Positions 623 through 51,897 of a stretch of 64,000 bases of DNA are shown here, piece by piece. This DNA comes from Lytechinus pictus (taxonomy: Eukaryota), in assembly GCF_037042905.1 (NCBI RefSeq), contig NC_087250.1, positions 6,264,001 through 6,328,000 of the forward strand, read 5' to 3'. The first letter of the stretch is position 1. Each line of letters starts with the position of its first letter. Below the pieces are notes generated by a model. That model made no database searches. It worked only from the letters and a program-made list of their open reading frames with translations, and had not been told where the DNA came from. Both the position numbers and the translations under genes were made by a program.

Positions 623-3600
623 ATTGATTGATTGATTGATTGCATTTATTCTTTTTCATTCCAAATTTTAACAAAAGTTACAATGTATAGTAAAACACAA
701 AATATAATATACAGAAATGAAAAAAGGGAACCCACTGGAAAGCAAAGCTTGTTATTATGGGTTCCCTGCAATAAATAGTTGATTAAAGTATGTAATTGAT
801 CAGTGAAATTCAAATCGTAAATTAAAAAGGTTTATACAATGAAAAAGAATACTACTGGGGTCAAGCTTTTTATGTGTACTGTGTTAAAATTGACAAAAAA
901 TATTATATTATACCCCTGCTGTATAAAAACAAACCATGAGTTCAGGAGTGTATGAACAAACAATCACTTGGAAAAGACAGAACGAATACTAAAAACAAAA
1001 CAAAGACAAAAACAAAAACAAAGAAGGCACGCAAACCACAACAGGACAAGACAGCAAAAAAGGGAACAGAAACAAAACAAAACACACTACAAAACATAGA
1101 CAAACAGGAAAATAAGAAAAGCAACAGAACTAGACATTAAAGGTGATAGGAAGAGAGAGAGAACAAAAGAAATATAAGAGGGAGGAGGAAAGAGAAGAAA
1201 GAAGAAAATAAGAAGGGAAGAAGAAGAAGATGTGGTAGCTGCTTACACAGAAATGTTTGAGTTCTGGGGTTTATACCCAAGAATAAGAATTTTCTTTAAC
1301 CCTCGACTGAAACTTAAATGTGTTGGTTTGTTACGTAATGATTCTGTAAGAGAGTTCCAAAGTTTGATACCTGTAAAAATAAATGTTTTATTCAAAAGGA
1401 TGGTTCTAGCTCTTGGTGGATGAAAGAGCCCGGCGGACCTAGTAGGATAATGATGAATATCGACATTTTTAGTAAACATGGAATAAAATATATTTGGAAG
1501 TTCATTTTTATCTAAACTATACATGAGTTTTCCGAGATTGTATCGATACAAGTCACCAATCTTCAAAATATTATATTTATAGAAAAGTTCGTCAGTGTGT
1601 GAACGAAAATCTGCATGACAAATAATACGAATAGCCTTTTTCTGCAAAAGTAAAATTCTGTTCAGGAGGCAGTCAGCACAATTCCCCCATGCTGTTATAC
1701 CGTAGTTTAAATGAGGCAGGATCAAAGTTGAATACAAATTAAATAGTATATGAGTGGGAAAGAAAAATTTTACTTTGTTTATAATACCAATATTTCTCGA
1801 AATAATTTTACAAATGTGATCAACGTGTTCTTTCCAGGAAAGATTATTATCAATGGTTACCCCAAGAAATTTAGTACTGCCAACTCTTTGTAAATTAGTA
1901 TTTTCGAAAATTATATTACCTGGAAGTTCATCTATGATATTACTAAAGAGCATATAATTTGTTTTTTGGAGATTAAGGGATAGTTTATTAGCTTTGATCC
2001 ATTCAGATACATGTACTAGTTCGTGGTTAATGGTGGCAAGCAAATGGCGTGGATCCTTATGGGAGAAAAAAATATTAGAATCGTCAGCAAACAGAAGAAA
2101 GGATAAATTATTGGAGGACTTACAAAAATCATTTATGTATATAAGAAAAAGTAGGGGACCCAAAATAGAGCCTTGCGGAACCCCACAAGTAACAAGTTTT
2201 GTTTCGGAATTAAAGTTTTCGAAAGAGACAAATTGTTTTCTATTGTCTAGGTAGTTCCTGAACCACTCCAAGGCTATTCCCCTGACTCCATAGTAATTAA
2301 GTTTGTGTAGTAAAATGTCATGATTAATGGTATCAAAAGCCTTGGAGAAGTCCAGGAACACCCCAACAGTATGTTGAAACTTGTCGATTCCGCTGGCAAT
2401 CTTATCAACTATTGTTAATAATGCATGTGTAGTATTATGATGTTCACGAAAACCAAATTGTAAGGGATAAAATAAATCATGCAAATTAAAGAATTTCGTC
2501 GTACGAACAAATATCAATTTTTCAAGTACTTTAGACAAACAGGTCAGCAGTGATATGGGTCGATAATTACCTAACGCAGTACTGTCACCTTTTTTAAATA
2601 CAGGTATAACTCGAGCTAGTTTCAGAGATGAAGGAACAATCCCAGTAGACATACATAAATTATAGATATATGCCAAGGGTTTAACAATGGTATTACAATT
2701 CTTTTTTAACAAAATGTTATTGATGCCATCATGCCCCGAGCTTTGCTTGTTTTTTAAGCCATGAATTATATCCGCAATTTCTGCCTCATCTGTAGGAGAA
2801 AAATATATTGAATGTGGGTTGGGGTCATGGAGAAAATCAGTAAAATGTTTTGTAGAGTCTGGAATGAGTCTGGCAAGATTTGGACCGATACTGGAAAAAT
2901 AATCATTGAAAGTGTTGGCTAAAGTAAGTGGATTTTCTATTATTTCGCCATCAACATTTATTTTTGAAACAATATATTTTTTTGAATTACCATGCAAAAC
3001 ATTCTTGATTATTTTCCAGGTATTTTGTATATCATTTTTGAATAATTGAAACTGATTGAAAAAATATTTTTTTTTACTTTTCCTAAGTATACCAGTAAGA
3101 ATGTTCTTGTAATCTTTGTACTTTTTCTTGTTTTTATCACATGGTTTAACAATTGATTTCAAATAAAGATTATTCTTCCTGTTAATGGATCGTAAAATAC
3201 CCTTGGAGACCCATGGGGACCTTGGAATCTTTTTGTAGTTAGATCTTTTTTTTCGGATTAAAGGAAAACAATGATCCATCTTAGAAGATGTTATGCTCAT
3301 GAATGATTCAAAGGCATCATTTGCATTTTCTATAGTGTAGATTCCAGACCAGTCTGTGTTTTCTAGCTCTTGCATAAAGTGTTCTATATTGTTTTCAGAA
3401 AAATCACGTTGTATGTGAAAAGCCGAGTTCGCCGAAAAATCATTATTGAGTTGGAAATGGAGGAATATTGGAAAATGGTCAGATAGATCGGAGAGAATTA
3501 TGCCAGATGACAGCGCATGTCGTACATTCGTAAAGACATTATCAATAAGACTAGCCGAGTTAGTAGAAATTCTGGTAGGTTTAGTAATTGCTGGTAAAAA

Positions 3601-4580
3601 ACCCGCAGTAAGAAATGAATCCATGAATTTTTGTATAAATGCATCTGAATCATATTTTAAGAGGTCTGCATTAAAATCCCCTAGTAAAAAGCAGTTTTTA
3701 TGAAGCATGATGGGGTGATTTAATAATTCATTGAAATTGTTTAAAAAGTCATCACGAAGATAGTTTGGAGGTCTGTAAATAACCCCGATTACAATGTTTT
3801 TGTCATTTGGAATAACTACTTCAATAAATAAACTTTCTATAGAATTATTCATGCGATTCAATTCTGGCCTCAGCCTATACTCGTACCGTTCAGAAATAAA
3901 CAAACATATACCGCCACCTGTTTTTTCTGTCCTGTTATTCGTAATCAAATTATAGCCAGGAAGTGAATAAAAAGTTAAATCAGTTTCAGAAGTAAACCAG
4001 GTTTCTGACAGACCTATAACTGAACAGTTGAGTTTGGAATTAAGTAAAAGGGAATGCAAAGCATCAAAGTTTTTATTGGCACTGCGAATATTGCAATGTA
4101 ACATTAAAAAATCATCTTTACTGTTGTTTGAATGTTTACTTGCAACCTGACTTTCTGAATAATAATAGGAAGGTGCATGCTGATAGGTACTATCGTTTGG
4201 ATCGGAGACAGAATCAAGATTCTTGTTTTGGAAGTTCATGGACTGGGCGACGAAATTGTGAAAAGCTTTATTTGAATTTTCATTAAAATTGGTATCTCGA
4301 TCAGACTGAAAAGCGTCGTATAATTCATCATTATCCAAGTAGTGAAATGGAGCATTTGTGTTAGCAGCCATAGTTAAGGAAAGAAAAGTGGAATAGAATG
4401 TGAAGAACAGTTACACAAAAACAAGACAAAACAGGACACACAGTAACACATGAACAATCACACAAAAAGGCAAACAACGAGAAAAAACGGCAAATATGCT
4501 TGATTGGCGGCAAAAAACATTACATCAGGCATTTGCCAGCTACCCCTAAATAACAAATAAAAAGAAACCAAAAAAAAAAA
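623..4580 (-). mobile_element. CR1/L2-group non-LTR retrotransposon, antisense in an intron of NLR gene 1
   Basis: ORF2 plus 3' UTR with stem AGGGAACCCA (725-734)/TGGGTTCCCT (758-767), minus-strand AATAAA (645-650) and (CAAT)n tail (623-642). 5' boundary approximate; no ORF1 recognised. Confidence 0.9.
1243..4371 (-). CDS. LINE ORF2: APE endonuclease + reverse transcriptase (CR1/L2 group), uninterrupted 1042 aa
   Basis: APE motifs HCNIRS, GLSETW, YRPP, GDFN, IDNVF, SDHFPI; RT motifs YRPISLL, FLDFSKAFDT, GVPQGSILGPLLF, FADD, KFLGV; C-terminal KLWNSL. Confidence 0.97.
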   Translation of the reverse strand: MAANTNAPFHYLDNDELYDAFQSDRDTNFNENSNKAFHNFVAQSMNFQNKNLDSVSDPNDSTYQHAPSYYYSESQVASKHSNNSKDDFLMLHCNIRSANKNFDALHSLLLNSKLNCSVIGLSETWFTSETDLTFYSLPGYNLITNNRTEKTGGGICLFISERYEYRLRPELNRMNNSIESLFIEVVIPNDKNIVIGVIYRPPNYLRDDFLNNFNELLNHPIMLHKNCFLLGDFNADLLKYDSDAFIQKFMDSFLTAGFLPAITKPTRISTNSASLIDNVFTNVRHALSSGIILSDLSDHFPIFLHFQLNNDFSANSAFHIQRDFSENNIEHFMQELENTDWSGIYTIENANDAFESFMSITSSKMDHCFPLIRKKRSNYKKIPRSPWVSKGILRSINRKNNLYLKSIVKPCDKNKKKYKDYKNILTGILRKSKKKYFFNQFQLFKNDIQNTWKIIKNVLHGNSKKYIVSKINVDGEIIENPLTLANTFNDYFSSIGPNLARLIPDSTKHFTDFLHDPNPHSIYFSPTDEAEIADIIHGLKNKQSSGHDGINNILLKKNCNTIVKPLAYIYNLCMSTGIVPSSLKLARVIPVFKKGDSTALGNYRPISLLTCLSKVLEKLIFVRTTKFFNLHDLFYPLQFGFREHHNTTHALLTIVDKIASGIDKFQHTVGVFLDFSKAFDTINHDILLHKLNYYGVRGIALEWFRNYLDNRKQFVSFENFNSETKLVTCGVPQGSILGPLLFLIYINDFCKSSNNLSFLLFADDSNIFFSHKDPRHLLATINHELVHVSEWIKANKLSLNLQKTNYMLFSNIIDELPGNIIFENTNLQRVGSTKFLGVTIDNNLSWKEHVDHICKIISRNIGIINKVKFFFPTHILFNLYSTLILPHLNYGITAWGNCADCLLNRILLLQKKAIRIICHADFRSHTDELFYKYNILKIGDLYRYNLGKLMYSLDKNELPNIFYSMFTKNVDIHHYPTRSAGLFHPPRARTILLNKTFIFTGIKLWNSLTESLRNKPTHLSFSRGLKKILILGYKPQNSNISV

Positions 4581-10563: not shown

Positions 10564-11849
10564 AGAAATTAGCCTTAATATATACATCATATCCTAAGAT
10601 TTTCAGCCCACCCCATGCTTGAAAATGTATTTTATATAAACAAGAGAATAATACGCAGGGGTGCATCCGTTTGTATTAAATTTTGATATAAAATTGATAA
10701 ATCTTTTTCAATAACACATACTTTTATCTTGAAACTTCACACCACGAAAATTTTTGGGGCACACATATTGATATGATATCGTAATCCATTGGAACAGTGA
10801 CATTCGATTTGGTGGAGATTTTTTTAGTAATAAATATATGTATATTGTGAAAGAAATGGATGAAGACAGGGTTGGCACGTCTGAGACGGTGCGTTTTAAA
10901 ACGTTTTAAAACGCGTATTAGAACACCCATTTTTCACATAAAAAGTGTTTTAAAACACGGCACAGGCTTGTGTGTAGTAAATTTGCAAGGATGGGATTTT
11001 AGATGAATGTTTTTTTTTTCATACTTCCATTTCTGAAGTGATGTATTGTTTTCCTCTAACTTTTTAAAACTCTTTCTCAACACCACTCCTTTTTTTATCC
11101 CCCCCCCCTTATTTTGCCTTTCTCCATCTCTTTGTCATGTTTCTTTCTTCCCAGTTCAATTATAAATCTGTAAACACGACAGGGCCACTCCATATCATTC
11201 AAGCCTCTTTTGGAATGCATGCATGTGTATGCAGTTATGATATTACACAACAAGTGCATGTCATACCCCGAATTTCTAAAAACGTGATTCATGTATAAAG
11301 CCAAGATCTGTATCATTATTTTTACTTTTTGTTGATTTAAATTATTGTCAATAATTTCCATTAAAAAAAAAGAAGTAAAAAAAAAAATTCTTACGCAAAT
11401 TTTGTTTCTCCCCCCCCCCTTAATTCACAAGACTCACAATACCCCGGGACTACATGTACATGTATGAGGAATAATTTTAGTGGGACTTTTTAGGGGCATT
11501 CAATTTCCATGCTTTAGTATTTTTTTCGGGAAATATGACTTTTTCTGTTGGAAGTTCACTAACAAATATTGTAATATTCTTTCACTAAATACTCCAAAAA
11601 TGTATTTAAAACGTCAAGAGCTTAATTCAGACTGTATAATTTAATTGATTTACGGAAAATTGCATCATTCGTTGGAAAAAAGTTAAAAAACGATATAAAA
11701 CGTTTTAAAGCATTTTGTTTTTTTGAATAAAAATCTTTTTTTATTTGTTTTATTACAACCCTGGATGAAGAGAAAAATGGTAGGCGTAGCTTAAATCAAG
11801 GATCCCCAGAGCTATCTACCCTTTGGAAAAATTGGTGATGCCGAAAAAA

Positions 11850-11922
11850 TGTCTCTGCCGGGAAAATGAACGCGTGCCCCCAGCTTTGAACGACGGTGCC
11901 TTAACCATTAGACCATAGAGAC
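11850..11922 (-). pseudogene. Degenerate second copy of the TCA tRNA-like gene
   Basis: Same sequence on the minus strand with the same GTTCAAA loop but a damaged T arm/B box. Confidence 0.65.
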
Positions 11923-12218
11923 GGGTTAGTGGCTAGGGCGACCTTGATCCAATTGGCCGTCAGATAGATTTTCGACACCATATCAAATATAATTTCCTTT
12001 GTCATGTTTGTTGGGTATAAGCGGGTTTTTGCACAAAGACAAGCCGCCACGCCTCAGCTATATCAAAGCTTTTTCCGGCATCACCATTTTTTTCCAATTG
12101 GTAGATAGCTTTGGGGAACCTTGAGTTAAGCTATACAAAAGAGTTGCCAAAGCTGCTGTACATGTAAAACGTCACACACACATACACATCACCCACGCAA
12201 ACACACACTCACACATAC

Positions 12219-12270
<52 letters not shown>

Positions 12271-12486
12271 TACAAAGCTGTAGTACATGTATAACTTCAC
12301 ACATTTGTATACTTTCTCCTATACGTGTACTGTATCAAAGCAATAGCTTTGATCCAGCTGAGGCATGGCGGCTTGTCATTGTTCAAAACCCACCTTCACC
12401 CGACAAAGGAAATTACAATTGGTATGGTGTCGAAAATCTGTCTATCTGACGGTCAATCGGATCGGGGTCGCCCTAGCCACTAACCC

Positions 12487-12558
12487 GTCTCTGTGGTCAA
12501 GTGGTTAAGGCACCGGCGTTCAAAGCTGGGGGCCCGGGTTCGATTCCCGGCAGAGACA
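12487..12558 (+). tRNA. tRNA-like gene, anticodon TCA (12520-12522), element-borne
   Basis: Acceptor GTCTCTG/CAGAGAC, D stem GTC/GGC, anticodon stem CCGGC/GCTGG with loop GTTCAAA, 4-nt variable loop, T stem CCGGG/CCCGG with TTCGATT, discriminator A, followed by TTTTTT. Confidence 0.6.
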
Positions 12559-12657
12559 TTTTTTCGGCATCACCAATTTTTCCAAAAAGGGTAGATAGCT
12601 CTGGGGAACCTTGATTTAAGCTACGCCTACCATTGTTCTCTTCATCCATTTCTTTCA

Positions 12658-12693
<36 letters not shown>

Positions 12694-32300: not shown

Positions 32301-33596
32301 GAGGAATTACGGATCAAATTCAGATTTCCAATTTTTTTTGGGGGGGTTTATTTAATCTTTTCGGCGAAAAAGGGATATCATTGTGGCGAACTAGAGACTG
32401 TAGATATAATAAACTACCTAGTTTCCCACACAAGTACCATATCCTGAAACAAGTACGAAAAATGTCAAAACAAACACATTAATAGTAGAAATAAGCAGAA
32501 TATGAAACCCATCCAGGATCTTTTTTTCTAGTGCGTCTGTATTGAATAATCATCCAAGCGTAAGGCTTACCAAACCGACCCTGGATCAAACCGCCGCTCT
32601 GTATATCAGTCAACTATGATTAATATTGAATATCATAGCGCGCGGTGCTCGCACCAGCGGACGCCAACCACCAGCGCGGACCCTGATTGGCCGGCGGCAT
32701 CGGCCAATCACAGCACGGCTCACACCCTAGTCGAGCCAGACAATAACGGGCAGCCGGGCACGCCGGCCCCTTGGCGATATAACCCGTGCGCGCGTTTCCG
32801 TTTTACACCCTGGCGAAGGCATTTTCCGGAAAAATAGCCACAAAGCGACTAGTGAAGAGTCTACGTCTACGTTTGTTTACATAATCAGCTGGGCGCGCGA
32901 TCCAAAAGTCCGCACCGAAGATATCCGCAGAACATACGTGCAAATGCAGCTGAGCTTATAGACCAAAAGCTTCAGTCTCTGTATTTTGGTTGTTCCGCTG
33001 AACTGATACGTTGGCTTCATGATTTTTTTTTACTTTATCGCACATGATCGTTTAGAATGAAAACGAATAATAGCTAAAATATTGAAAAATAAAACACATA
33101 ATTACTTGTTTTCATATTATATCTATCCTTATATCTATCATATCTGTCTATCCACTATCTATGTTATAAATCAATCTATGGTACTACATGGTATATCTAT
33201 CTGTTAATTTGTCTATCTACTCTGTCTCTCTCATTCTCTATCTACCTATCTATCTGTCTATCCATCTAACATCTATCTCTCAAATTCTCTATCTATCCAT
33301 CTGTCTCTCTTTTATTTCTCTCTATCCATCTGTTAATCTACTCATGTGCAATATCAACACTGCTTCAACTTCCTTCGGGAGTCTATTTCCTCAGCTCTAC
33401 TTTTCCCTTTTTTGTGCTCGTTTCGATTCAACTACTACTTTATTTACTTGTTACCATTGTTAAATGTCTTGTATTGCATAATGAGTTTTTTTCTTCTGAA
33501 GGTTGCCTCCTATTCTCTTTCAAATTCCACCTCTTGCTTTCCCTTCTCTTTGTCTTATCCAGATTTATTTCCCTTCTCTCACCTCTTTCTTCTTAA

Positions 33597-33717
33597 AGGT
33601 CAAGTCCACCTCAGAAAAATGTTAATTTGGATAAAAAGAGAAAAATTCAACAAGCACAATGCTGAAAATTTCATCAAAATCGGATGTAAAATAAGAAAGT
33701 TATGACATTTCAAAGTT
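33597..33717 (+). mobile_element. Kolobok-like terminal fragment nested in Mutator-like copy 1
   Basis: TTAA|AGGTCAAGTCCACC start; absent from copy 2, which has TTAA at the equivalent site. Confidence 0.6.
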
Positions 33718-33729
33718 TGTATTGCAATA

Positions 33730-33760
<31 letters not shown>

Positions 33761-34326
33761 CTCAAATTCTCTTTATCTATCCATCTGTCTTTCTCTAGTT
33801 CTCTCTCTCTCTATCAATCTATCTATCTATCTTCTATCTATCTATCTATCTATCTATATGTAACTGCAGTATCTATCGATCTGTTAATTTGTCGCTCTTC
33901 TCTGTCTCTCTCATTCTTCATCTATCTAACATCTATCTATCTCTCAAATTCTCTCTCTCTCTCTCCCCCTCTCTCTATCTATCTATCCATCTTTCTGTCT
34001 TTCTCTCTCTATCTATCTTCTATCTATTTATTTATCTATCTCTCAAATTCTATCTCTATCTATCCATGTAACTACAGTATATATCTATCTATCTGTTAAT
34101 TTGTCTATCTTCTCTGTCTCTCTCATTCTTTATCTATCTATCTATCTATCTATCTATCTTCTATCTATCTATATATCTATATGTAACTGCAGTATCTATC
34201 GATCTGTTAATTTGTCGTTCTTCTCTGTCTCTCTCATTCTTTATCTATCTAACATCTATCTATCTCTCAAATTCTCTCTCTCTCTCTCCCCCTCTCTCTA
34301 TCTATCTATCCATCTTTCTGTCTTTC

Positions 34327-34383
<57 letters not shown>

Positions 34384-34895
34384 TATCTATTTATATATCT
34401 ATGTAACTACAGTATATATCTATCTGTTAATTTATCTATCTTCTCTGTCTCTCTCATTCTTTATCTATCTATCTATCTATCTAACATGTACCTATCTCTC
34501 AAATTCTCTATCTCTCTCTCCCCCCTCTATCTATCTATCCATCTGTCTGTCTTTCTCTATATCTCTCTATTTATCTTCTATCTATCTATTTATCTAGCTA
34601 TCTATATGTAACTACAGTTTCTATTTATCTGTTAATTTGTCTATCTTCTTTGTCTCTCTCATTCTTTATCTATCTATCTAACATCTATCTATCTCTCAGA
34701 TTCTCTACCTCTCTCTCTCTCTCTCTCTTTCTCTCTTTATCTATCCATCTGTCTGTATTTTTTTTCTCTCTCTATTTCTCTTTAACCGTCCATATATCTA
34801 TCTATATATCTATAACATCTCTCCATCTCTCAAGTTCTCTCCCCCCATCTATCTATCTATCCATCTCTCTGTCTTTCTCTCTCTCTCTCTACTTC

Positions 34896-34938
<43 letters not shown>

Positions 34939-35752
34939 GGCTGCGTTTATGCGACCTCAAGCCAGAATCATGATTTGAATCATGATTTGAATCATGATTC
35001 AAAACACAAACATGAATCACAATATCACAGAATCAGCGTTTAGACGACCTTCATTCCAACGCTGTTTCTCCTCAGATTCGGGCCAATCCAGTGCGCATCA
35101 CTAGTGCGCAGTTTGACAGAGGAAGTTTTTCGCACGTGTTTCGGCTCTCGAAAAATCTTTTGCTTCCATAATTCATTTTGTTTACTTCTATCATATAGGG
35201 TCCATAATATATGCTTCTATTCATCATGTTAGTTTATCCAAAATGGTGTTCGGAAGTGAATTTCAGCGTAGATCCAATTTAATATTGATACTGTATACTC
35301 AACAACAACTGAGATCATTGTCTGTCCAGTTAATTCATTTACTAGAACTTGAAGTTGAAGACATGACCAAAAAATGAACAGTAGTGGACGATGCGATGAC
35401 CAACACAGAACTTGAACATGACAAGAAATGCATGCATAGTACATAATCATGTACATACAATGAGCATATAGAGCGCCTTGAGCTTGGCAATAGTCAAACC
35501 GAAAGTAGCCCGACACAGTGAGGTCATATAGAATCATGATTCAAATCACGATATCGTTTATTCGAACATTTTCGTACGTGATTCTGCAGAAACGTCTTTC
35601 CAAACGCCCCTTTTTTCGTGTTTCATGTTTGTGATTCTAATCATGATTATATTCAATTTCGACTAAACGCAATCGTGATTCTGCAGAATCATGATTTGAA
35701 TCATGATTCAGATCATGATTCTAGGGTAAAAAAGTGGCGGATAAACGCACCC
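34939..35752. mobile_element. PIF/Harbinger-like MITE nested in Mutator-like copy 1
   Basis: Ends GGCTGCGTTTAT / ATAAACGCACCC, 3-bp flanks TAT/TAA, subterminal AATCATGATT palindromes; empty site in copy 2 near 50670. Confidence 0.75.
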
Positions 35753-36923
35753 TAAGTCTCTATCTATTTATCAGTCTTCTATATCTATATTTCGGCATCT
35801 AGTGTATCAATCCATCAAACTTCAATTTTCTTTCTATTATTTGTATATGTTTATTTTTATTTTGTCTGTCATTCTATTCATTTAGTTAATAATTTATATT
35901 TAGAAAAAAAAACTTTTTCATAACTTTTCATAAAAAAACTTAACTGCAAAAGCATGTCCTGATTTCACTCATATGACTGCTCTCTTTCCATGAAGTGCCG
36001 AGGAACTCTATGCTCTGATCAGTAACTGTGCAGATTGCATGCGGTGGTGTGGGGCTCGCCTGTGTCGCACGCTGCAACCAGCGACGTGTGTAGACTCTTC
36101 ACTAGTCGCTTTGTGGCTATTTTTGCGGAAAATGCCTTCGCCAGGGTGTAAAACGGAAACGCGCAACCCGTGCGCAGTGCTCAGCGTCTTTGCTCAGTGC
36201 CTGACGAAGTCGCTTTCCTACTATGTTTGATACATCGTGAGACAACTGGTTATTTCTTATCCTTCACCACGATGAACCTCTTCCACATCATATAAAAATC
36301 ATCTTAGATCCAGTGGTAAAGGACAAGGGTCAAATCATTGAACGATCATGTACATGTCGCTTTGAATGATAAGGGTGCTGGATTGTAAAAAGTCAAAGAT
36401 TTTCGATCACTCGAAAATGGAAAGGGATGTTGTTTAAAAAAAAAAATACAAGGGGGGAAATCATTTGAAAAAGGAGGGGACTTGGTTAGGAATAAGAGAA
36501 AAAAATACAAGCAAACAAAGAAGGGTTTGTTCAAACAAAATAAAATTGATTTTGTTCAGAAAAAAACAATCAAAAGCATACACACACACACACAAACCCA
36601 TCGTTCCCTAATTTATGGAGATTTTTGTCATTTCTTTACATTTTACCATACAAACCCCCGTTTCCCAGGGCATTGATAATCCAGGCGTAATTAAAAAAAA
36701 ACAGATACTAGATCGAGGCAAAATAAAATCATGATTGCTTTACTGAAGCAACTTAAAATGCAGTGCCGAACCTGGGAATATATGCTTATTGTCATGTAAG
36801 TATTCAAGTGTAAACGTTGAGGACAATATCACAGTCGTTTTGTGACCCTTCCGTTCTCTCAAACGTATTTCACCCCCTCCGACCCCCCCCCCCCCACTCC
36901 CACCTTTCTTCTCTCTCTCTCCC

Positions 36924-36964
<41 letters not shown>

Positions 36965-38247
36965 ATATCTCTTACTGTCTACTCCCTTTTTATAAGTAAA
37001 TTAGGCAAAGCTTTTATCAAAAGACAGGAATGTTTGAAACGAGAAATGAGAAAGGTGCGGTTGAATGACGAAAATATTTGCACTTCGATTTCATTTCAAA
37101 AGTCCTCACGATACAACGCCTGAAAATTGGTAAATAGCATTGTTAGGCAGATGAAGTAATAATAAAATCACATAACGCCTGACCGTGACGTGCACCACGT
37201 CCAAATTCAATACCTATATAGTAAGATGCAAAAATAGGACCTCAATGTGGGGCGCGGCTTGCGCGTCAAATTTCGGCACAAACATTTTTTTTTGCCCATT
37301 AAGAGGTAAAAAAAAAAAAATTGACAATATATGTTTAATGATATTTTGACTATCCTCCCTCACAAAGATAATGCAGGGATAAGATCCCAGGGGCATGTTA
37401 TTTTGCAGAATCGTTTCATGTTGAGTATTACATATGTCCCCTCCAAGTTTGTTTATATTGTTTTCAGGGGTGGGGGTCATTTATATTTGAAGATCAAACC
37501 AAGGGTATCAGTTTTTGTATTGGCGTGCTTATATTGTTATTAAGCATTGCAATGATTAAACAGCTCAGGGGCCCAAGCCAAGTAAAGATGTAATAAAGTT
37601 ACATAAATCAAGTAGACTTCCAATATTGATAGTCTTTACTTTAGGAACAATGACTGACTGAAACTAATCATACGATGAATATGATTCATGGATTTAATGA
37701 ATAATATTATTTATTCATCTGTTTGTTGTATTATGATAGAATATAAATGATTATGGCCAGAATATGACACAATGTATGACAAAATAGTATTATGAAGATT
37801 TTAGACAACCTATCGCCTACAAGTTAATTTAGAAAAAAAAAATATATTACATAAGGGGATAAGTCGGAAGCTTCAGTGTAGCGTTACGTCTTACAAAGAA
37901 GTTGCCAGCACTACGTGCTGCCTCCTCACATTATCTACATTTGCACAGGTTGAGATATTAAGCATTTTATTTTATTTTTTCAAATCCTTTCAAAACTCAA
38001 AGCTATTTAGTATTACCTTATCATCGAATTGTAGAGTATGTATTTTCCAATATCAACCCCTCTCCCCAACCAATATTGTTTTTTTTTTTTTTAGATATTG
38101 GGAAAAAATAGATACTTAGGGGAAAGTCAAAGCGAATGTTCGGTTTACCCATGAAAAAAAACCAAGTATCTACAGATGAAAGATAATTCCATTCAGTTGT
38201 CATGGTTCTATCGTTCGTTATCAATTGCGCAATATTGGCTTCCTAAG

Positions 38248-40155
38248 AACATATCTCACTCACAAGCTGGATTTAGAGGAAGCTATAGCACAATGGATCA
38301 TATTTTCACTTTACATGGTTTAATTGATTTATATTTGCACCGTGGTAAGATAATTTATTGTCTTTTTATAGACTATCTGAAAGCTTTTGATTTAGTTGAT
38401 AGGTCGTCCTTGTGGTACAAACTCATTTCTAATGGTATCAATGGTAACACCATTAGGGTTATATATAATTTGTATTTAAATGCAAAATCGTGTATAAAAC
38501 TTCGTTACAGCTTGTCCAATTCTTTTGCATGTAATATAGGAGTAAGGCAGGGAGAAAATGTGTATCCTTTACTGTTTGCAATGTATTTGAATGATTTTGA
38601 ATATTTTGTTAGTAGGCGTTATAAAGGTCTTGATATGTGTGCTTCAGAGATTAGGAAAAATCTCACTTATGATGATATTGAAGTATTTCTACGTCTTTAT
38701 GTGTTGCTGTATGCGGACGATACGATTGTTATGGCGGAGTCTGCTGATGAACTGCAAAATGCTCTATCAGCTGTACACCAGTAATAATGTGATCTTTGGA
38801 AATTGTCTGTTAACACAAGCAAAACAAAGATTGTTATATTTTCTCGTGGAAAAGTGCGTAAATACCCCAAATTTACTTTTGGTGATAGTACCCTCAATGT
38901 TGTTGATGATTATATATACCTCGGAACGACTTTCAATTATAATGGTTCCTTTGATAAAGCTATCACTAAACAGGTTAATCAGGCGAGGATAGCTATGTTT
39001 GCTTTAATTTGCAAAGCAAAAAAATTATGCTTACCTGTGGATATTCAGTGTGAGCTTTTTGATCAGCTTGTTGTCCCGATTTTGTTGTATGGTAGTGAAG
39101 TGTGGGGCTTCCAGAAGCTCGATTGTATTGAGATATTTCATAGGAAATTTCTTAAAAGTTTGCTTAAACTAAATCGTGGCACTGCCAAATGCATGGTGTA
39201 TGGTGAACTTGGTAGAAGTGCCCTGGCAAGTAGGATAGAGATGCGTATGGTTAATTTTTGGGCAAGGATCAGCCAAGGTAACAAATCTAAACTCTCTTAC
39301 ACCATCTACAGTTTGTTACGAAAACTTCATGTAAATTGTGAGTTTAATTCAAGATGGATCTCAAAAATTTAAAGTATTTTGGACAATTGTGGAATGTCAA
39401 GTTTGTGGGAAGAAGACCATCTTTTAAATCTGAATCGGGTTAAGTTAGCTATGGAAAGTAGATTACGTGATATTGATTATCAAAACTGGAATGAAGAAGT
39501 TAATAGAAATCGTTTGTGTTTCATTTATAGAATTTTCAAACAAGAAGCAGTTTTAGACAAATATTTGTTGAAGTTGGATTTAGGAGATAGAATATCTTTA
39601 TGTAAATGTCGGTGTGGTAACCATAATCTGCCAATTGCTAAATGTCGTTTTTCATCTGATGAACCTCTTGAAATATGTCCATTGTGTAACCTTGAAGTTT
39701 AGGGTGATGAATTTCATTATGTTTTAGTATGTCCGTTTTTCAATGATGAGCGTAAGAAGTATGTTAAGATTTATTATTACCGTATACCTAATGTCATTAA
39801 GTTTAATCAGCTATTCAATGTTAAATCTATTAAGCACTTAAAGAATATATCCAAATTTTTTAGAGTCATCATGTCGAAGTTCAAATAATTTTGTTGTCTT
39901 TCCTTGTTTTCATGCTCTTCCTGTTGTTGAATTGGTCTTTTTAAAATTAATGTACATGTACGTAGTTCAGACTATTTCTATGCCATGTTATTAGTCCATA
40001 TATTTTATTTTCGATTCTTGCCTTTTACCTGTTTGTTGTAAGAGTCTGATATTCTAAGCTTTTGTTATCTTTTAACTTTTTTATGTATATCTATATTTGT
40101 TGTTATACTATTGTATTTCTTCCATGCCCCTGAAGGGGCCGTATAAGAAATACAA
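38248..40155 (+). mobile_element. 5'-truncated LINE pseudogene, RTEX-like
   Basis: One frame with in-frame stops (38782, 39370, 39700): QAGFR, FIDYLKAFD, GVRQGEN, LLYADDT, YIYLG, PILLYGSEVWG, C-terminal CPLC...GDEFHYVLVCP; ends TAA 39888; 3' hairpin gcccctgaaggggc. Confidence 0.9.
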
Positions 40156-40469: not shown

Positions 40470-42028
40470 TATAGTGTACAACATACCCACCATTACACCC
40501 ATTTTCCAGGGCAATGATAATCCTGGCGTAATGTTCACAAACCAGACACTAGATTAAAGAAAAATAATATTATGATAATATAGTTTTACGTAAGTTATTA
40601 ATGTAATGCTGAACCTGGAGATACGTGCTTATTGTTATTTAAATATTCAAATACAAAAAAAGTAAAAAATAGGGAAAAAATATCTAACCACAATCGCTCG
40701 TGACATCATTACTCGCTATGCTTTCCCCTCTCTTCTATCTGCATTTCCTGCCGCCGGGCGCCCCCGTACTCTCTTTCTCTCTATCTTTATCTCCCCTTCT
40801 CTCACTGTCTACTTTCCTTTCTATATCGGTACAATTGGCAAAGCTTTTTATCAAAAGATAGGAGTAAGAAGGTTGCAGCTAGTTTTATCTTGCTTCTGAT
40901 ATTTGAATAAAGAACATATTTTTTCTTTTCTTTCATGTCAAAAGCCGCCACAGTGCAAGGTTGCCAAATTCGTAAACATCATTGTCAAAGCAGATGAAAA
41001 AAATAGTGATATGATAAAACGCCTAACCGTGACATGCGCCGTCGGCAATTTGAATACTCAAAAGAAGCAGGAATTTGACTTTATTTTGGTGATTTGTTTA
41101 TATATATGTATATATATTTTTCTCTTGGGGTGGGGGACTGAAACTGTGTTGAAAAAAATCACATAAGTCAGCAAGGCGGACAATAAAATATTAGTGGAAT
41201 GGTAATTACAATTACTGTTGATATAGATGTATGCTATAAATCATTTGGTTTATTGTCTTATCGCCGACTTCAAATTAGAAGCTGGTGTGAACTCACTATA
41301 AAAGGTGAGCAGTCGATCAAAAAGTTCGAGCGTGGCGATGTTGTCATTATTCCAAAACTGATGCCTCACCACATTATTTGAAAATATGTGATCATCATTA
41401 CTTCGTGATGGCAATCACTTACATTAGAATATTCAGACACTTTTGAAGATGGATTGTAACAAAAGAACGTTCCAAATATAATTTTATTCAAACATCTTTT
41501 TTTAAGTCTATTCTAAATGATTATGTGATATCTACATCATCCTTTACCCTTCTAAACATATTTCAATTTACAAATATCTTTTAGCTTGACTAATAAAATA
41601 AAACTGTAATGAGCTCATGCACGCGAACCCATTTCACGAATATTACTATGAAACATTATAACGCATATTTAAGTTTACGAAGACCTGTTACAACCGATAA
41701 CCGTCGCAGCGACGCATACAAGAGAGTTTTCCCAATCAGGACGCGGACGCTCTCTTACAATGCACCAATTCCTTTTAAAACGCAAGTCAAATCACAACGG
41801 AGAGCTGAGAGGCTTCAGTCGAAAGTTAGTGGTTCGGGACTGCAGATTATCCGAAGATTTGGACTGGCCGAATAATCGCAAATATGTCTTGGTCAAATCA
41901 CGAGACGGTGCTGCTGTCCACCAAAAAAAAGCCTCTCAGATATGTCTTTGATTTGACTCACATTCTCAAGGACTTTGTGCGTTGTAGAATGGTCACGTCA
42001 TGATTGCGACAATTCTCTATTGTCGCAC

Positions 42029-42310
42029 CAACGCATTATGTCGCAAAGTGTGACATGATGCGATGATCATCCAACACATAATGTCGCAAAGTGTGACATG
42101 ACACGATGATCGTCACACGCATGTCCTAGCCAACGCATAATGTCGCAAAGTGTGACATGATACGATGATCGTCCTACGCATGTCACAGCCAACGCATAAT
42201 GTTTCAAAGTGTGACATGATGCGAATATCGCCCCACGCATGTAACAGCCAACGCATAGTGTTGTTAATTTACTAACGCATAATGCCTTATGTCCTCACGA
42301 ATAATGTCGC
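42029..42310. repeat. Minisatellite, ~59-bp unit
   Basis: caacgcataatgtcgcaaagtgtgacatgat.cgatgatcgtc..acgcatgtc..agc repeated 4-5 times. Confidence 0.9.
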
Positions 42311-48398: not shown

Positions 48399-48604
48399 CA
48401 TATTGTTGCAATTCGTTTGGGGTAAAACCATGAATTAATCCGACTAATAATTGACCCGAAGGCCGAAAAATACATACTTAACGCAGTGTGTACATTTTAG
48501 TCAAAATGTAATCGAATTTCTGAAGAGCGTATCCACAGTATGAAAACAATTCGGGGACGGTGCGATGTGTGTATCGCACTGAAATTGCACGCAGTTGCTG
48601 GGAC

Positions 48605-49666
48605 GCGCGTTTCCGTTTTACACCCTGGCGAAGGCATTTTCCGGAAAAATAGCCACAAAGCGACTAGTGAAGAGTCTACGTCTACGTTTGTTTACATAAT
48701 CAGCTGGGCGCTCGATCCAAAAGTCCGCACCGAAGATATCCGCAGAAATATACGTGCAAATGCAGCTGAGCTTATAGACCAAACGCTTTGCAGTCTCTGT
48801 ATTTTGGTTGTTCCGCTGAACTACGTTGGCTCCATTATTATTATTTTTTTTTTACTTTATCGCACATGATCGTTTATATGAATGAAAACGAATAATAGCT
48901 AAAATATTGAAAAATAAAACACATAATTACCTCTTTTTCTTCATATTATATCTATCCTTATATCTATCATATCTGTCTATCCACTATCTATGTTATAAAT
49001 CAATCTATGGAACTACATGATATATCTATCTGTCAATTTGTCTATCTACTCTGTCTCTCTCATTCTCTATCTACCTATCTATCTATCTATCCATCCATCT
49101 AACATCTATCTCTCAAATTCTCTATCTATCCATCTGTCTCTCTTTTATTTCTCTCTATCCATCTATTAATCTATTCATGTGCAATGTCAACACTGCTTAG
49201 ACTTCTTTCGGGAGTCTATTTCCTCAGCTCTACTTTTCCCTTTTTTGTGCTCGATTCGATTCAATTACTACTTTATTTACTTGTTACCATTGTTAAATGT
49301 CTTGTATTGCATAATGAGTTTTTTTTCTGAAGGCTGCCTCCTCGGTGCATCCTATTCTCTTTCAAATTCCACCTCTTGCTTTCCCTTCTCTTTGTCTTAT
49401 CCCAATTTCTTTCCCTTCTCTCACCTCTTTCCTCTTCTCTCTCCTCTTTCTTCTTAATCTTTCATTCCGCATTTTTCTTCTTAGATGACACTCTGTAGTA
49501 CTTTTGGCCTTTTGTATTTATTTATGGTACATTTCGTTTGTATTGTATTTGATATTTATTTATAATGTTTACTTTATATCTTGTTATGATTTTATTTGTA
49601 TGTAAACATTCACTTATTTCAGTCTTTGACTGCTTGTGATTGTATTTTGATAGTTTTTATTGCAAT

Positions 49667-49697
<31 letters not shown>

Positions 49698-50268
49698 GTC
49701 TTAAATTCTCTCTATCCATCTGTCTGTCTTTTTCTCTCTCCCTATTTATCTCTATCCGTCTATCTATCTATCTATCTATCTATCTATTTATCTATCTATG
49801 TAACTACAGTATCTATCTATCTGTTAATTTGTCGCTCTTCTCTGTCTCTCTCATTCTTTATCTATCTATCTACACAGCAAAAACTGTGGTGTTAACCGGT
49901 GTACATAGAGGACCACACAAGTTATTTTACACCGGTGTTAAATTGGTGGTGTTAGTTTTACACCTATAGGTGTTATTACAACCATCTTTGGTGTTATGTT
50001 CAATCTCTAGGGTGTTATTTTAACACCTCAGGGTGTGGTCCTCTATTAACACCAATTGGTGTCAGTTTTAACACCACAGTTTTTACAGTGTATCTATATA
50101 TCTATCTAACATCTATCAATCTTTCAAATTCTCTATCTCTCTTTCCCTCTATCTATCTATCCTTCTGTCTGTCTGTTTTTTCTCTCTTTCTCTCTTTCTC
50201 TTTTTCCGTCCATATATATATATCTATCTATCTATAACATCTCTCCATTTCTCAAATTCTCTCCCCCC

Positions 50269-50325
<57 letters not shown>

Positions 50326-50439
50326 CTATCTATTTATCTATCTATATGTAACTACAGTATCTATCTATATGTTAATTTGTCTATCTTCTCTGTCTCTATA
50401 ATTCTTTATCTATCTATTTAACATCTATCTATCTCTCAG

Positions 50440-50477
<38 letters not shown>

Positions 50478-51109
50478 CATCTGTCTGTCTTTTTTCTCTC
50501 TTTCTCTATTTATCTTTATCCGTCCATATATCTATCTATTTATCTATCTATAACATCTCTCTATCTCTCATGTTCTCTCCCCCCATATATCTATCTATCT
50601 ATATATCTATCTATCTATCTATCTATCTATCCATCTCTCTGTCTTTCTCTCTATTTATATCTATATATCTATGTCTCTATCTATTTATCAGTCTTATATA
50701 TCTATCGTTCAGCATCTAAGTGTATCAATCCATCAAAATTCAATTTTCTTTCTATTATATGTATCTGTTTATTTTTATTTTGTCTGTCATTCTATTTATT
50801 TAGTTAATAATTTATTTTTAGAAAAAAAACTTTTTCATAACTTTTCATTAAAAAAACGCAACTGCAAAAGCATGTTCGGATTCCACTCATCTGCTCTCTG
50901 TACATGAAGTGCCGAGGAACTCTATGCTCTAATCATAGAGCTATTAATAGCTCCATGCTCTAATCGGTAACTGTGTAGATTGCATGCGGTGGTGTGGGAC
51001 TCGGCTGTGTCGCACGCTGCAACCAGCGACGTGTGTAGACTCTTCACTAGTCGCTTTGTGGCTATTTTTGCGGAAAATGCCTTCGCCAGGGTGTAAAACG
51101 GAAACGCGC
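48605..51109. mobile_element. Non-autonomous Mutator-like element, copy 2
   Basis: Same TIRs and interior as 32790-36164; 9-bp TSD tgctgggac/tgccgggac (one mismatch). Confidence 0.88.
49873..50090. mobile_element. CAC-ended MITE nested in Mutator-like copy 2
   Basis: TA|CACAGCAAAAACTGTGGTGTTAA ... TTAACACCACAGTTTTTACAGTG|TA. Confidence 0.85.
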
Positions 51110-51897
51110 TGCCGGGACACGACATTTGCTTCCGCGAGATTTCCACCGGTCTTGATATATCAAAGGCACGGGGTTAGAGTTATGGTGGTAAAAGAGGGTT
51201 TTTTTTTCAGAATAACGTAAAGATAAGGATTGGGGTTTAAAAGTGTTGGATGATATATTTTATGTTTTGCTTTAAGTGCGAACTTTCCATTGGTGCATTT
51301 GTCATAGGGGCAATCAACTGCCATTGAACCCATAATTGCAACACATTGGAATGGTTGGCACTGTGTGATAACACACACATAGAACTGTGTTCACATAGAA
51401 GACAAGTAGTAAGAAAATTTAACGCAGGATGTAAAATCCATTTGTCGCAGTGTGAGTGCCTTATTTTCCGTGCTCTCCTCCCAGGTGAGGTATGTGGGTA
51501 CCTGGTAGGAATGTTTTCCCTTGAATGCCTTGAGTGCGTCATAGTAGCTCGGGTAAGCCATAGTAACCATTCATTGTAGAGCGGTTATATACATGTACTC
51601 TTGATTTAGAGGTATTAGGCGCTAATTGTATATCAAACAAAGAAATGTTATAAAATGAAGATAAAACAAAAACTACCCTGAAAATAAGAACCCGCCCTTT
51701 CACACGGTAAAAAAAATCAATGTTGATTTCAGGAAAAAATAAGGGTAATGACATATTTTTGACACGTGTAAACCAAACTAGAATCATGAACGCTTATCAC
51801 AATTTCAAATTCAAATTCTACTTCGGAGGTGAATTCCAGTTAAGTTTCATACAAATTATGGTAGGAGTCTTACGTGTGAAATGCTTGACCTCCAAAA

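Follow-up and report, generated by a model that had tools for sequence, protein, structure and literature searches.

A 64,000-nucleotide stretch of the Lytechinus pictus genome (contig NC_087250.1, positions 6,264,001 to 6,328,000 of the forward strand; hereafter "the window") contains a repeat that carries what looks like an intact tRNA gene with the anticodon UCA. The locus raises the question of what such a gene is doing inside a repeat: whether it decodes UGA, serves the element or the host in some other way, or is carried along as a passenger. A first-pass annotation, made from the sequence alone, had proposed an opal-suppressor-like tRNA, a tRNA mimic or a TFIIIC-binding insulator; mimicry and insulator roles are guesses. 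The explanation that we favor, with moderate confidence, is that the module is a relic or passenger tRNA gene in a high-copy, non-autonomous, Penelope-type retroelement, and not a UGA decoder. A more interesting question than suppression is whether the fold serves as a processing site for host enzymes or as a Pol III platform.

A tRNA-type gene with a stop anticodon

The tRNA-like module is a 72-nt cloverleaf at positions 12487-12558 of the window (+ strand), with the anticodon TCA at 12520-12522. ARAGORN reports it as the sole tRNA in the 64-kb window and labels it "SeC" (anticodon tca at position 34), a label that is due to the anticodon alone. Rfam family RF00005 matches the module over its full length (1-71) at 59.5 bits (gathering score 29; E 2.5e-10), and the consensus of the repeat family scores 60.9 bits against the same cut-off. 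Read directly from the sequence, the acceptor stem pairs at 7/7 positions, the T stem at 5/5 and the anticodon stem at five, including one G-U. These three stems are as the first-pass annotation had described them; the D stem of the window copy is not intact, as the module here is one base off the family consensus (A13 for T13) and the A13-A22 mismatch breaks the D-stem pair 13-22. A thermodynamic fold recovers the acceptor, anticodon and T arms, with the D arm missing (z about -2.5), and none of 100 shuffles matched the 20-nt T-arm string by chance. The contact bases conserved among tRNAs (U8, A14, G18G19, U33, a purine at 37, the T-loop TTCRA and G53-C61) are all present. The anticodon loop, G-T-TCA-A-A, places G and not a pyrimidine at position 32; G is also the family consensus there, where this genome's Glu, Gly and Lys genes have C or T, and the earlier remark that G32 is atypical was well founded.

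Promoter and terminator signals are found on the same strand. An A-box-like stretch at 12494-12504 covers tRNA positions 8-18, assigned by sequence reading under what we take to be the A-box motif, and a B-box-like stretch at 12537-12547, GGTTCGATTCC, is identical in the genome's tRNA-Glu and tRNA-Gly genes. A terminator-like T6 run (12559-12564) directly follows the discriminator base, as T runs do behind the genome's real tRNA-Gly and tRNA-Glu genes, where they are T7-T8 in length. Both boxes and the immediate T6 had been listed before, and all are present on direct reading. The claim of an immediate termination signal also extends to the family: the T6 is kept in 44/46 full copies of the unbiased sample described below, with T5 in the remaining 2/46, and is retained in old and young copies alike. 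A second T run, a T5, lies about 11-16 nt beyond the T6. The object is an anatomically complete tRNA-type gene with a stop anticodon, present as a repeat module.

Compared with the genome's tRNA-Glu genes, the module is identical at 54-56 of 72 positions, with the D loop and the variable/T region exact; compared with tRNA-Gly(TCC) it is identical at 51/72, with the D-loop and T-arm the same. This likeness suggests descent from a Gly/Glu-type cytosolic tRNA gene. The genome yielded no candidate parent sharing the module's acceptor stem; only Glu, Gly and Lys genes and SINE heads were seen. The T runs of the real Gly and Glu genes, together with tRNA-Lys genes arrayed at a period of 470 bp, make the module look like a whole gene and not a mere promoter head.

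Other identities were considered. A nuclear copy of mitochondrial tRNA-Trp(UCA) was rejected on sight, the D and T loops of the module being canonical cytosolic ones, identical to those of nuclear Glu/Gly genes. Identity as tRNA-Sec, which the first-pass annotation had already discounted, was ruled out: the module has a 7/5 fold, a 4-bp D stem and a 4-nt variable region, its best clan member is RF00005 at an ordinary tRNA score, and the long variable arm, 9/4 or 8/5 acceptor/T arrangement and 6-bp D stem of tRNA-Sec (RF01852) are all absent from it. True candidates for tRNA-Sec (two, 86 nt, 76.9 bits) lie elsewhere in the genome. The genome's tRNA-Gly(TCC) genes are themselves clustered, with 26 of the 27 that were pattern-matched genome-wide lying on both strands of C13:22.08-22.16 Mb.

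Family structure and mode of spread

The genome searched comprises 812 Mb in 368 contigs. A 26-nt anticodon-arm pattern with the anticodon left free matches it 1,878 times; the anticodon is TCA in 99 and TCT in one of the first 100 matches listed. With exact flanks, position 36 is variant in 17/1,878 copies (C in 8, T in 5 and G in 4), a scatter that looks like plain mutation. The 78-nt consensus of module plus T6 occurs unchanged in 1,137 copies. The module belongs to a 406-412-bp unit, which stands in arrays of less than one to about 43.6 units, the last at C2:8866017-8883729. TCA, complementary to UGA, is the anticodon of 46/46 full copies in the unbiased sample and of the 1,137 exact copies; a different anticodon or a lack of stems in the family consensus would have counted against the first-pass annotation, and the consensus carries TCA and paired stems. 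A derivation of the anticodon from tRNA-Gly(TCC) was tried and dropped: 24 family copies do have TCC (the four inspected all lie within a normal unit), yet the changes at position 36 go to all three other bases, as given above, and old copies have TCA. Sequencing runs under three organism labels contain about half of the sampled unit words, so near-identical copies exist beyond the window's own species label.

At this locus the module lies in a young copy of the approximately 410-bp element, at 12273-12672 (+), which amounts to nearly one full unit (unit 199-412 and then 1-188, with unit positions numbered from tRNA base 1) and is about 99% identical to the family reference by blastn against the unit. 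A (TA)15 run at 12661-12690, either a microsatellite target or a tail, marks its 3' end, an arrangement with a counterpart in 51/65 arms of the sample. On its 5' side, a (TA)25 run at 12220-12269 doubles as the 3' tail of an older + arm, and the young copy was therefore inserted into the TA run of the older one. The older direct arm (12070-12178, +) consists of unit 73-139 and 188-229 at 84-90% identity by blastn and ends in CACACA plus the TA run. Head to head with it stands an older inverted arm (11762-12073, -; unit 268-412 and then 1-164, 81-92% identity by blastn), which holds a decayed tRNA-like part at 11850-11922 with TCA retained and the T arm broken. The earlier description of the module as complete and element-borne is supported by this second, inverted copy together with the ARAGORN call and the RF00005 score, and its position inside the repeat, away from the head, by the unit 189-412 sequence that precedes the module in most copies.

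Insertion architecture was examined in an unbiased sample consisting of all 40 loci on contig C1 with the anticodon-arm pattern; mapping of the unit at these loci gave 65 arms. The 3' ends of the arms fall at unit ~188 in 27, at 229-237 in 29 and elsewhere in 9. The 5' ends fall throughout the unit, frequently where there is TA/AT microhomology, and form several clusters. At least four TA repeats follow within 30 nt past the 3' end in 51/65 arms, and the 5' side is often TA-flanked too. There are 21 head-to-head minus/plus junctions, distributed over 20/40 loci, and the window has the same plan. Where both outer ends of a head-to-head pair could be classified, 15/16 pairs join one 188 end and one 229-237 end, an outcome with a chance of about 3 in 10,000 at 50:50 (our own arithmetic). 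Insertions often have a 41-49-bp extension at one end only, and this regular short/long asymmetry may constrain integration models for such elements.

Fixed 3' ends combined with free 5' ends argue for copying from RNA, as opposed to a symmetric DNA process. Spread as a Helitron or by other DNA-level means was ruled out by the fixed 3' ends, the scattered 5' ends and the absence of Helitron ends. Craig et al. (2021, PMC8557442) describe Penelope-like elements as strongly 5'-truncated and partly tandem, with a neighboring copy that is inverted and likewise 5'-truncated, a tail that one end alone bears and a preference for (TA)n; they name (TA)n as the preferred target of the Naiad clade and report head-to-tail multicopy insertions for non-autonomous Penelope-like relatives. 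A Penelope-type mode of spread is well supported for the unit family. By this route, the 406-412-bp unit would be copied via RNA into (TA)n microsatellites by reverse transcription of the Penelope-like type. The outcome would be arrays that run head to tail and lack 5' sequence, often with an inverted arm and with one end slightly extended.

An ordinary tandem tRNA gene family, with no mobile element involved, would be another way to produce arrays of this kind, and the genome has a ready precedent in its tRNA-Lys genes, which stand in arrays of about 470-bp period (12 genes in 5.4 kb); real tRNA genes here likewise end in T runs. Against such an origin are hundreds of dispersed, 5'-truncated, TA-flanked and partly inverted copies on many contigs, a spacer unrelated to that of the Lys array and an insertion anatomy that contradicts it, and we regard it as highly improbable. 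The Lys array referred to (anticodons TTT and CTT) lies at C4:9700600-9706000, within a region of about 45 tRNA matches in 35 kb (C4:9.70-9.74 Mb).

The ends of the arms also bear on the idea that the module acts as DNA, as a Pol III/TFIIIC platform that would drive transcription of the element with read-through of the T6, or would form a host chromatin boundary at some insertions. Its B box is perfect and its A box nearly so, both matching those of the genome's real tRNA genes exactly, more than 1,100 copies are intact, and 9/65 arms have their 5' end in unit 1-13, which could mean that the module was where some templates started. The T6 and downstream T5, however, should stop Pol III before it reaches the 3' end of the element, the module is preceded in most copies by unit sequence that a start at the module could not supply, and 5' ends also cluster elsewhere, all of them with TA/AT microhomology. 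A platform role of this kind is rather unlikely. In the passenger reading, some copies may still yield a short tRNA-size RNA and bind TFIIIC/Pol III, and the element would be copied from longer read-through transcripts running across the T6.

The passenger reading also presumes a Penelope-type partner, and coding sequences were searched accordingly. Open frames of at least 110 aa were collected in 355 kb and 89 were kept; the longest 30 of these, together with nine more around window 36.8-41.2 kb, were compared with Pfam. Among these Pfam-searched frames no coding partner recurs beside the arrays (only an APE-type LINE and RT fragments were seen), and the recurrent "ORFs" near arrays are frames of the unit itself. 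GIY-YIG domains do occur in the genome, where the open frames that encode them reach 954 aa. One GIY-YIG family was compared with the unit, out of a set with 468 other candidate places: a young Penelope-like family, with copies 97.7% alike, a C-terminal GIY-YIG nuclease and tandem 3' units of about 565 bp (C19:10761500-10762700; C8:29774600-29775800). Its 3' region has no similarity to the unit. Inverted pairs of GIY-YIG matches are found on C8 and C19.

The remainder of the window contains several other features. An APE-type LINE copy at 1246-4410 (-) has a 1,055-aa frame with endonuclease/exonuclease/phosphatase and reverse-transcriptase domains, and no match between this LINE and the unit was found. 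A reverse-transcriptase fragment occupies two adjoining frames at 38155-39372 (+), and no nuclease domain was found in its vicinity. The blocks at 32783-36169 and 48600-51116, separated by about 15 kb, are related: they are 87-99% alike, partly inverted, rich in (TCTA)n/(CT)n minisatellites and strongly skewed in GC and AT. Four tandem 59-bp units lie at 42025-42261.

Selection, decoding and RNA evidence

The first-pass annotation had called for a check of anticodon conservation together with stem covariation. The anticodon is indeed uniform in the family; covariation is absent and old copies decay, losing the T arm and the fold. In a set of 67 copies (42 distinct), cloverleaf pairing is present in 92.3% of cells vs 92.1% in shuffles, with 125/500 shuffles as high, and there is neither covariation nor an excess of double changes; 8 of the 67 rows are 5'-truncated and have flank letters in the acceptor columns, which lowers the pairing there. 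Divergence from the consensus is 1.1% over module bases 1-21 and 2.7% over bases 48-72 vs 4.9% elsewhere in the unit, a figure inflated by indel-prone and end regions (the best other stretches are at 1.6-2.5%). Changes at the subfamily level number 0 in the module vs 9 in the other 334 positions, a difference that is not significant (estimated P about 0.15). From the 1,137 identical copies, the lack of covariation and the decay of old copies it follows that the uniform TCA is inherited: the module is uniform through identity by descent, in an amplified family of recent origin, and not through conservation. The TCA anticodon would then be the founder's state, multiplied through amplification, and the Gly/Glu-type-derived module would have retained its promoter boxes, full cloverleaf and terminator.

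One comparison points the other way. Relative to tRNA-Glu and tRNA-Gly, 4/7 acceptor pairs of the module differ on both sides and all seven still pair, and the anticodon stem has been rebuilt; such changes hint at past selection on the fold or at a closer, unseen parent gene. The cloverleaf is kept better than a mere promoter needs, which counts against the relic or passenger reading. So do the T6 found in copies of every age, the loss of the fold from a SINE head of this genome (described below), the lower divergence of the module, with the reservation given above, and the lack of an autonomous partner among the frames and the GIY-YIG family compared.

A working opal suppressor would be an RNA that is made, matured, charged (most likely with Trp) and able to read UGA. 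The anticodon UCA, U33, A37, the full set of tertiary-contact bases and the module's own promoter and terminator are all features that such a tRNA would have, and A73, G1-C72, C35 and A36 of the module fit what is presumably the eukaryotic TrpRS identity set. Suppressor activity nevertheless appears unlikely because G32 is atypical, more than 1,100 identical suppressor genes should harm the host, copies decay freely without covariation, and the genome has its own separate tRNA-Sec candidates. We would assign very little probability to it, and equally little to its fullest form, in which more than 1,100 identical modules would be live Pol III genes for a charged (Trp), element-borne UGA reader, for example in the germ line or early embryo. 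By analogy, a UGA reader might aid a retroelement partner with an in-frame UGA; in other phyla, Naiads, which are Penelope-like, have been recorded that encode selenocysteine by UGA (PMC8557442). A real suppressor, if true, would be far more important than a passenger. In the preferred, passenger reading, any RNA from the module would not be a UGA decoder.

Among indexed sequencing runs, none recorded as RNA was listed as containing the stretch, which is no evidence either way. RNA evidence comes from three raw RNA-seq runs with the same species label; these are conventional paired cDNA libraries, in which RNA of tRNA size, CCA ends and charging would all be invisible, and no processed transcript was seen in them. 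Reads from the unit number 681, 518 and 348 of the 12.9 million read per run, most of them 95-99% alike, and they make up a smaller fraction of the reads than the family does of the genome (at least 0.09%, by our own arithmetic). The two orientations are equal, the whole unit is covered, coverage rises toward the 3' part as genomic copy number does, and depth does not drop after the T6. Reads span the joins between units, the joins between inverted arms and the flanks of insertions; those across unit joins are equally explained by tandem DNA, and depth is low. In none of the three runs do read ends accumulate at a module border (12486/12487 or 12558-12564); the sole place listed is 12434, in one run. 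This is the pattern that passive read-through or DNA traces would give. A separate observation is that, in each run, 38-55 reads pass from a (GA)n-like stretch straight into the unit's 3' part (window 12592-12655), where depth steps up; a pattern search of the assembly found no match to this junction.

The same reads bear on a role of the fold as a processing signal, in which RNase P and RNase Z would cut tandem transcripts at the modules to give unit-length RNAs that are used as templates or circularised, along with a small tRNA-like by-product. The architecture of the element is that of the non-LTR retrozymes minus the ribozyme, the acceptor/T-arm fold has been retained in full, beyond what a promoter requires, and Naiad and Chlamys Penelope-like elements are likewise described as being without canonical hammerheads (PMC8557442). 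Yet the inserted arrays hold uncut modules, read ends do not pile up at module borders in the three runs, and insertion 3' ends fall at unit 188/229-237, away from the module. The products of RNase P and RNase Z bear a 5'-phosphate and a 3'-OH, whereas RtcB joins ends of another kind. The mascRNA model, furthermore, scores only 20.8 bits against a cut-off of 42.5. We consider processing at the module a doubtful proposition.

Comparison with known systems

For annotation, the more than 1,000 "tRNA-Sec/suppressor" calls in this genome amount to one repeat family. Like tRNA-Sec, the module has the anticodon UCA in a loop of the form xUUCAAA. Like the tRNA-Lys arrays (C4:9.70 Mb), the family has a period of 0.4-0.5 kb, with one tRNA gene and T run per unit; unlike those arrays, which are local and have sense-codon anticodons, it is dispersed by insertion and has a stop anticodon. 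With MALAT1 mascRNA-type signals it shares a tRNA-like fold inside a longer transcript, and it differs from them in its low score to RF01684, given above as the mascRNA model, and in RNA-seq reads that are without a cleavage signature.

A parallel in this genome is provided by tRNA-derived SINEs. "Family B", a SINE of over 300 bp that accounts for most of 247 pattern matches, has a degenerate head in which the module's D loop and B box recur; it and the module family are both tRNA-derived and high in copy number. The family B head is 54/72 identical to the module, with the fold lost and 0 proper tRNA calls by ARAGORN in 12 copies. Sea-urchin SINE2 families are named in PMC4824008. The module family is unlike SINEs in that its tRNA part is internal (about 224 nt from the unit start), has a whole cloverleaf and is followed by an immediate terminator, and in that its copies are 5'-truncated and tandem. 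In place of a promoter head at the 5' end of the element, most copies have unit 189-412 before the module and the 5' ends are scattered; in place of an interior free of strong Pol III terminators, there is the T6, in 44/46 copies, and then the T5.

There is also a likeness to Penelope-like elements, especially those of the Naiad type, which share 5' truncation, partial tandems, an inverted neighbor, a one-end extension and a (TA)n bias with the unit family. The unit differs from them in having no ORF and no sequence in common with the one GIY-YIG family examined. A published account of the family was not found in searches on suppressor tRNA/sea urchin and on tRNA-like tandem retrotransposons (Repbase, SINEBase or supplements may contain it), nor was the module sequence found printed in a paper.

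Animal non-LTR retrozymes, as outlined in PMC7229834, are tandem non-coding units of 150-450 bp that occur as dimers to 62-mers. A 2026 preprint (bioRxiv 10.64898/2026.07.22.740005) derives them from Penelope-like elements, by which they are thought to be mobilised (PMC7229834; bioRxiv 10.64898/2026.07.22.740005). The unit family is similarly non-coding, a few hundred bp in length, arranged head to tail in dimers to tens, dispersed and high in copy number. It is unlike the retrozymes in that circular or abundant RNA was not seen in the RNA-seq reads and no hammerhead ribozyme was found by Rfam at E<=1 over 3.3 units, the matches being the tRNA and weak chance ones; the unit has instead a complete tRNA-like gene plus T6. 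The element might thus be called "retrozyme-like", with a tRNA-like gene in place of the hammerhead ribozyme; among tandem retroelements of the Penelope type it looks like a new variant, one that lacks a hammerhead and bears a tRNA. If this is true, it would be a natural echinoderm case of a retrozyme-like Penelope-type element in which a ribozyme has given way to a whole tRNA-type gene, and the family offers a test case for whether a host-processed tRNA fold can replace a self-cleaving ribozyme.
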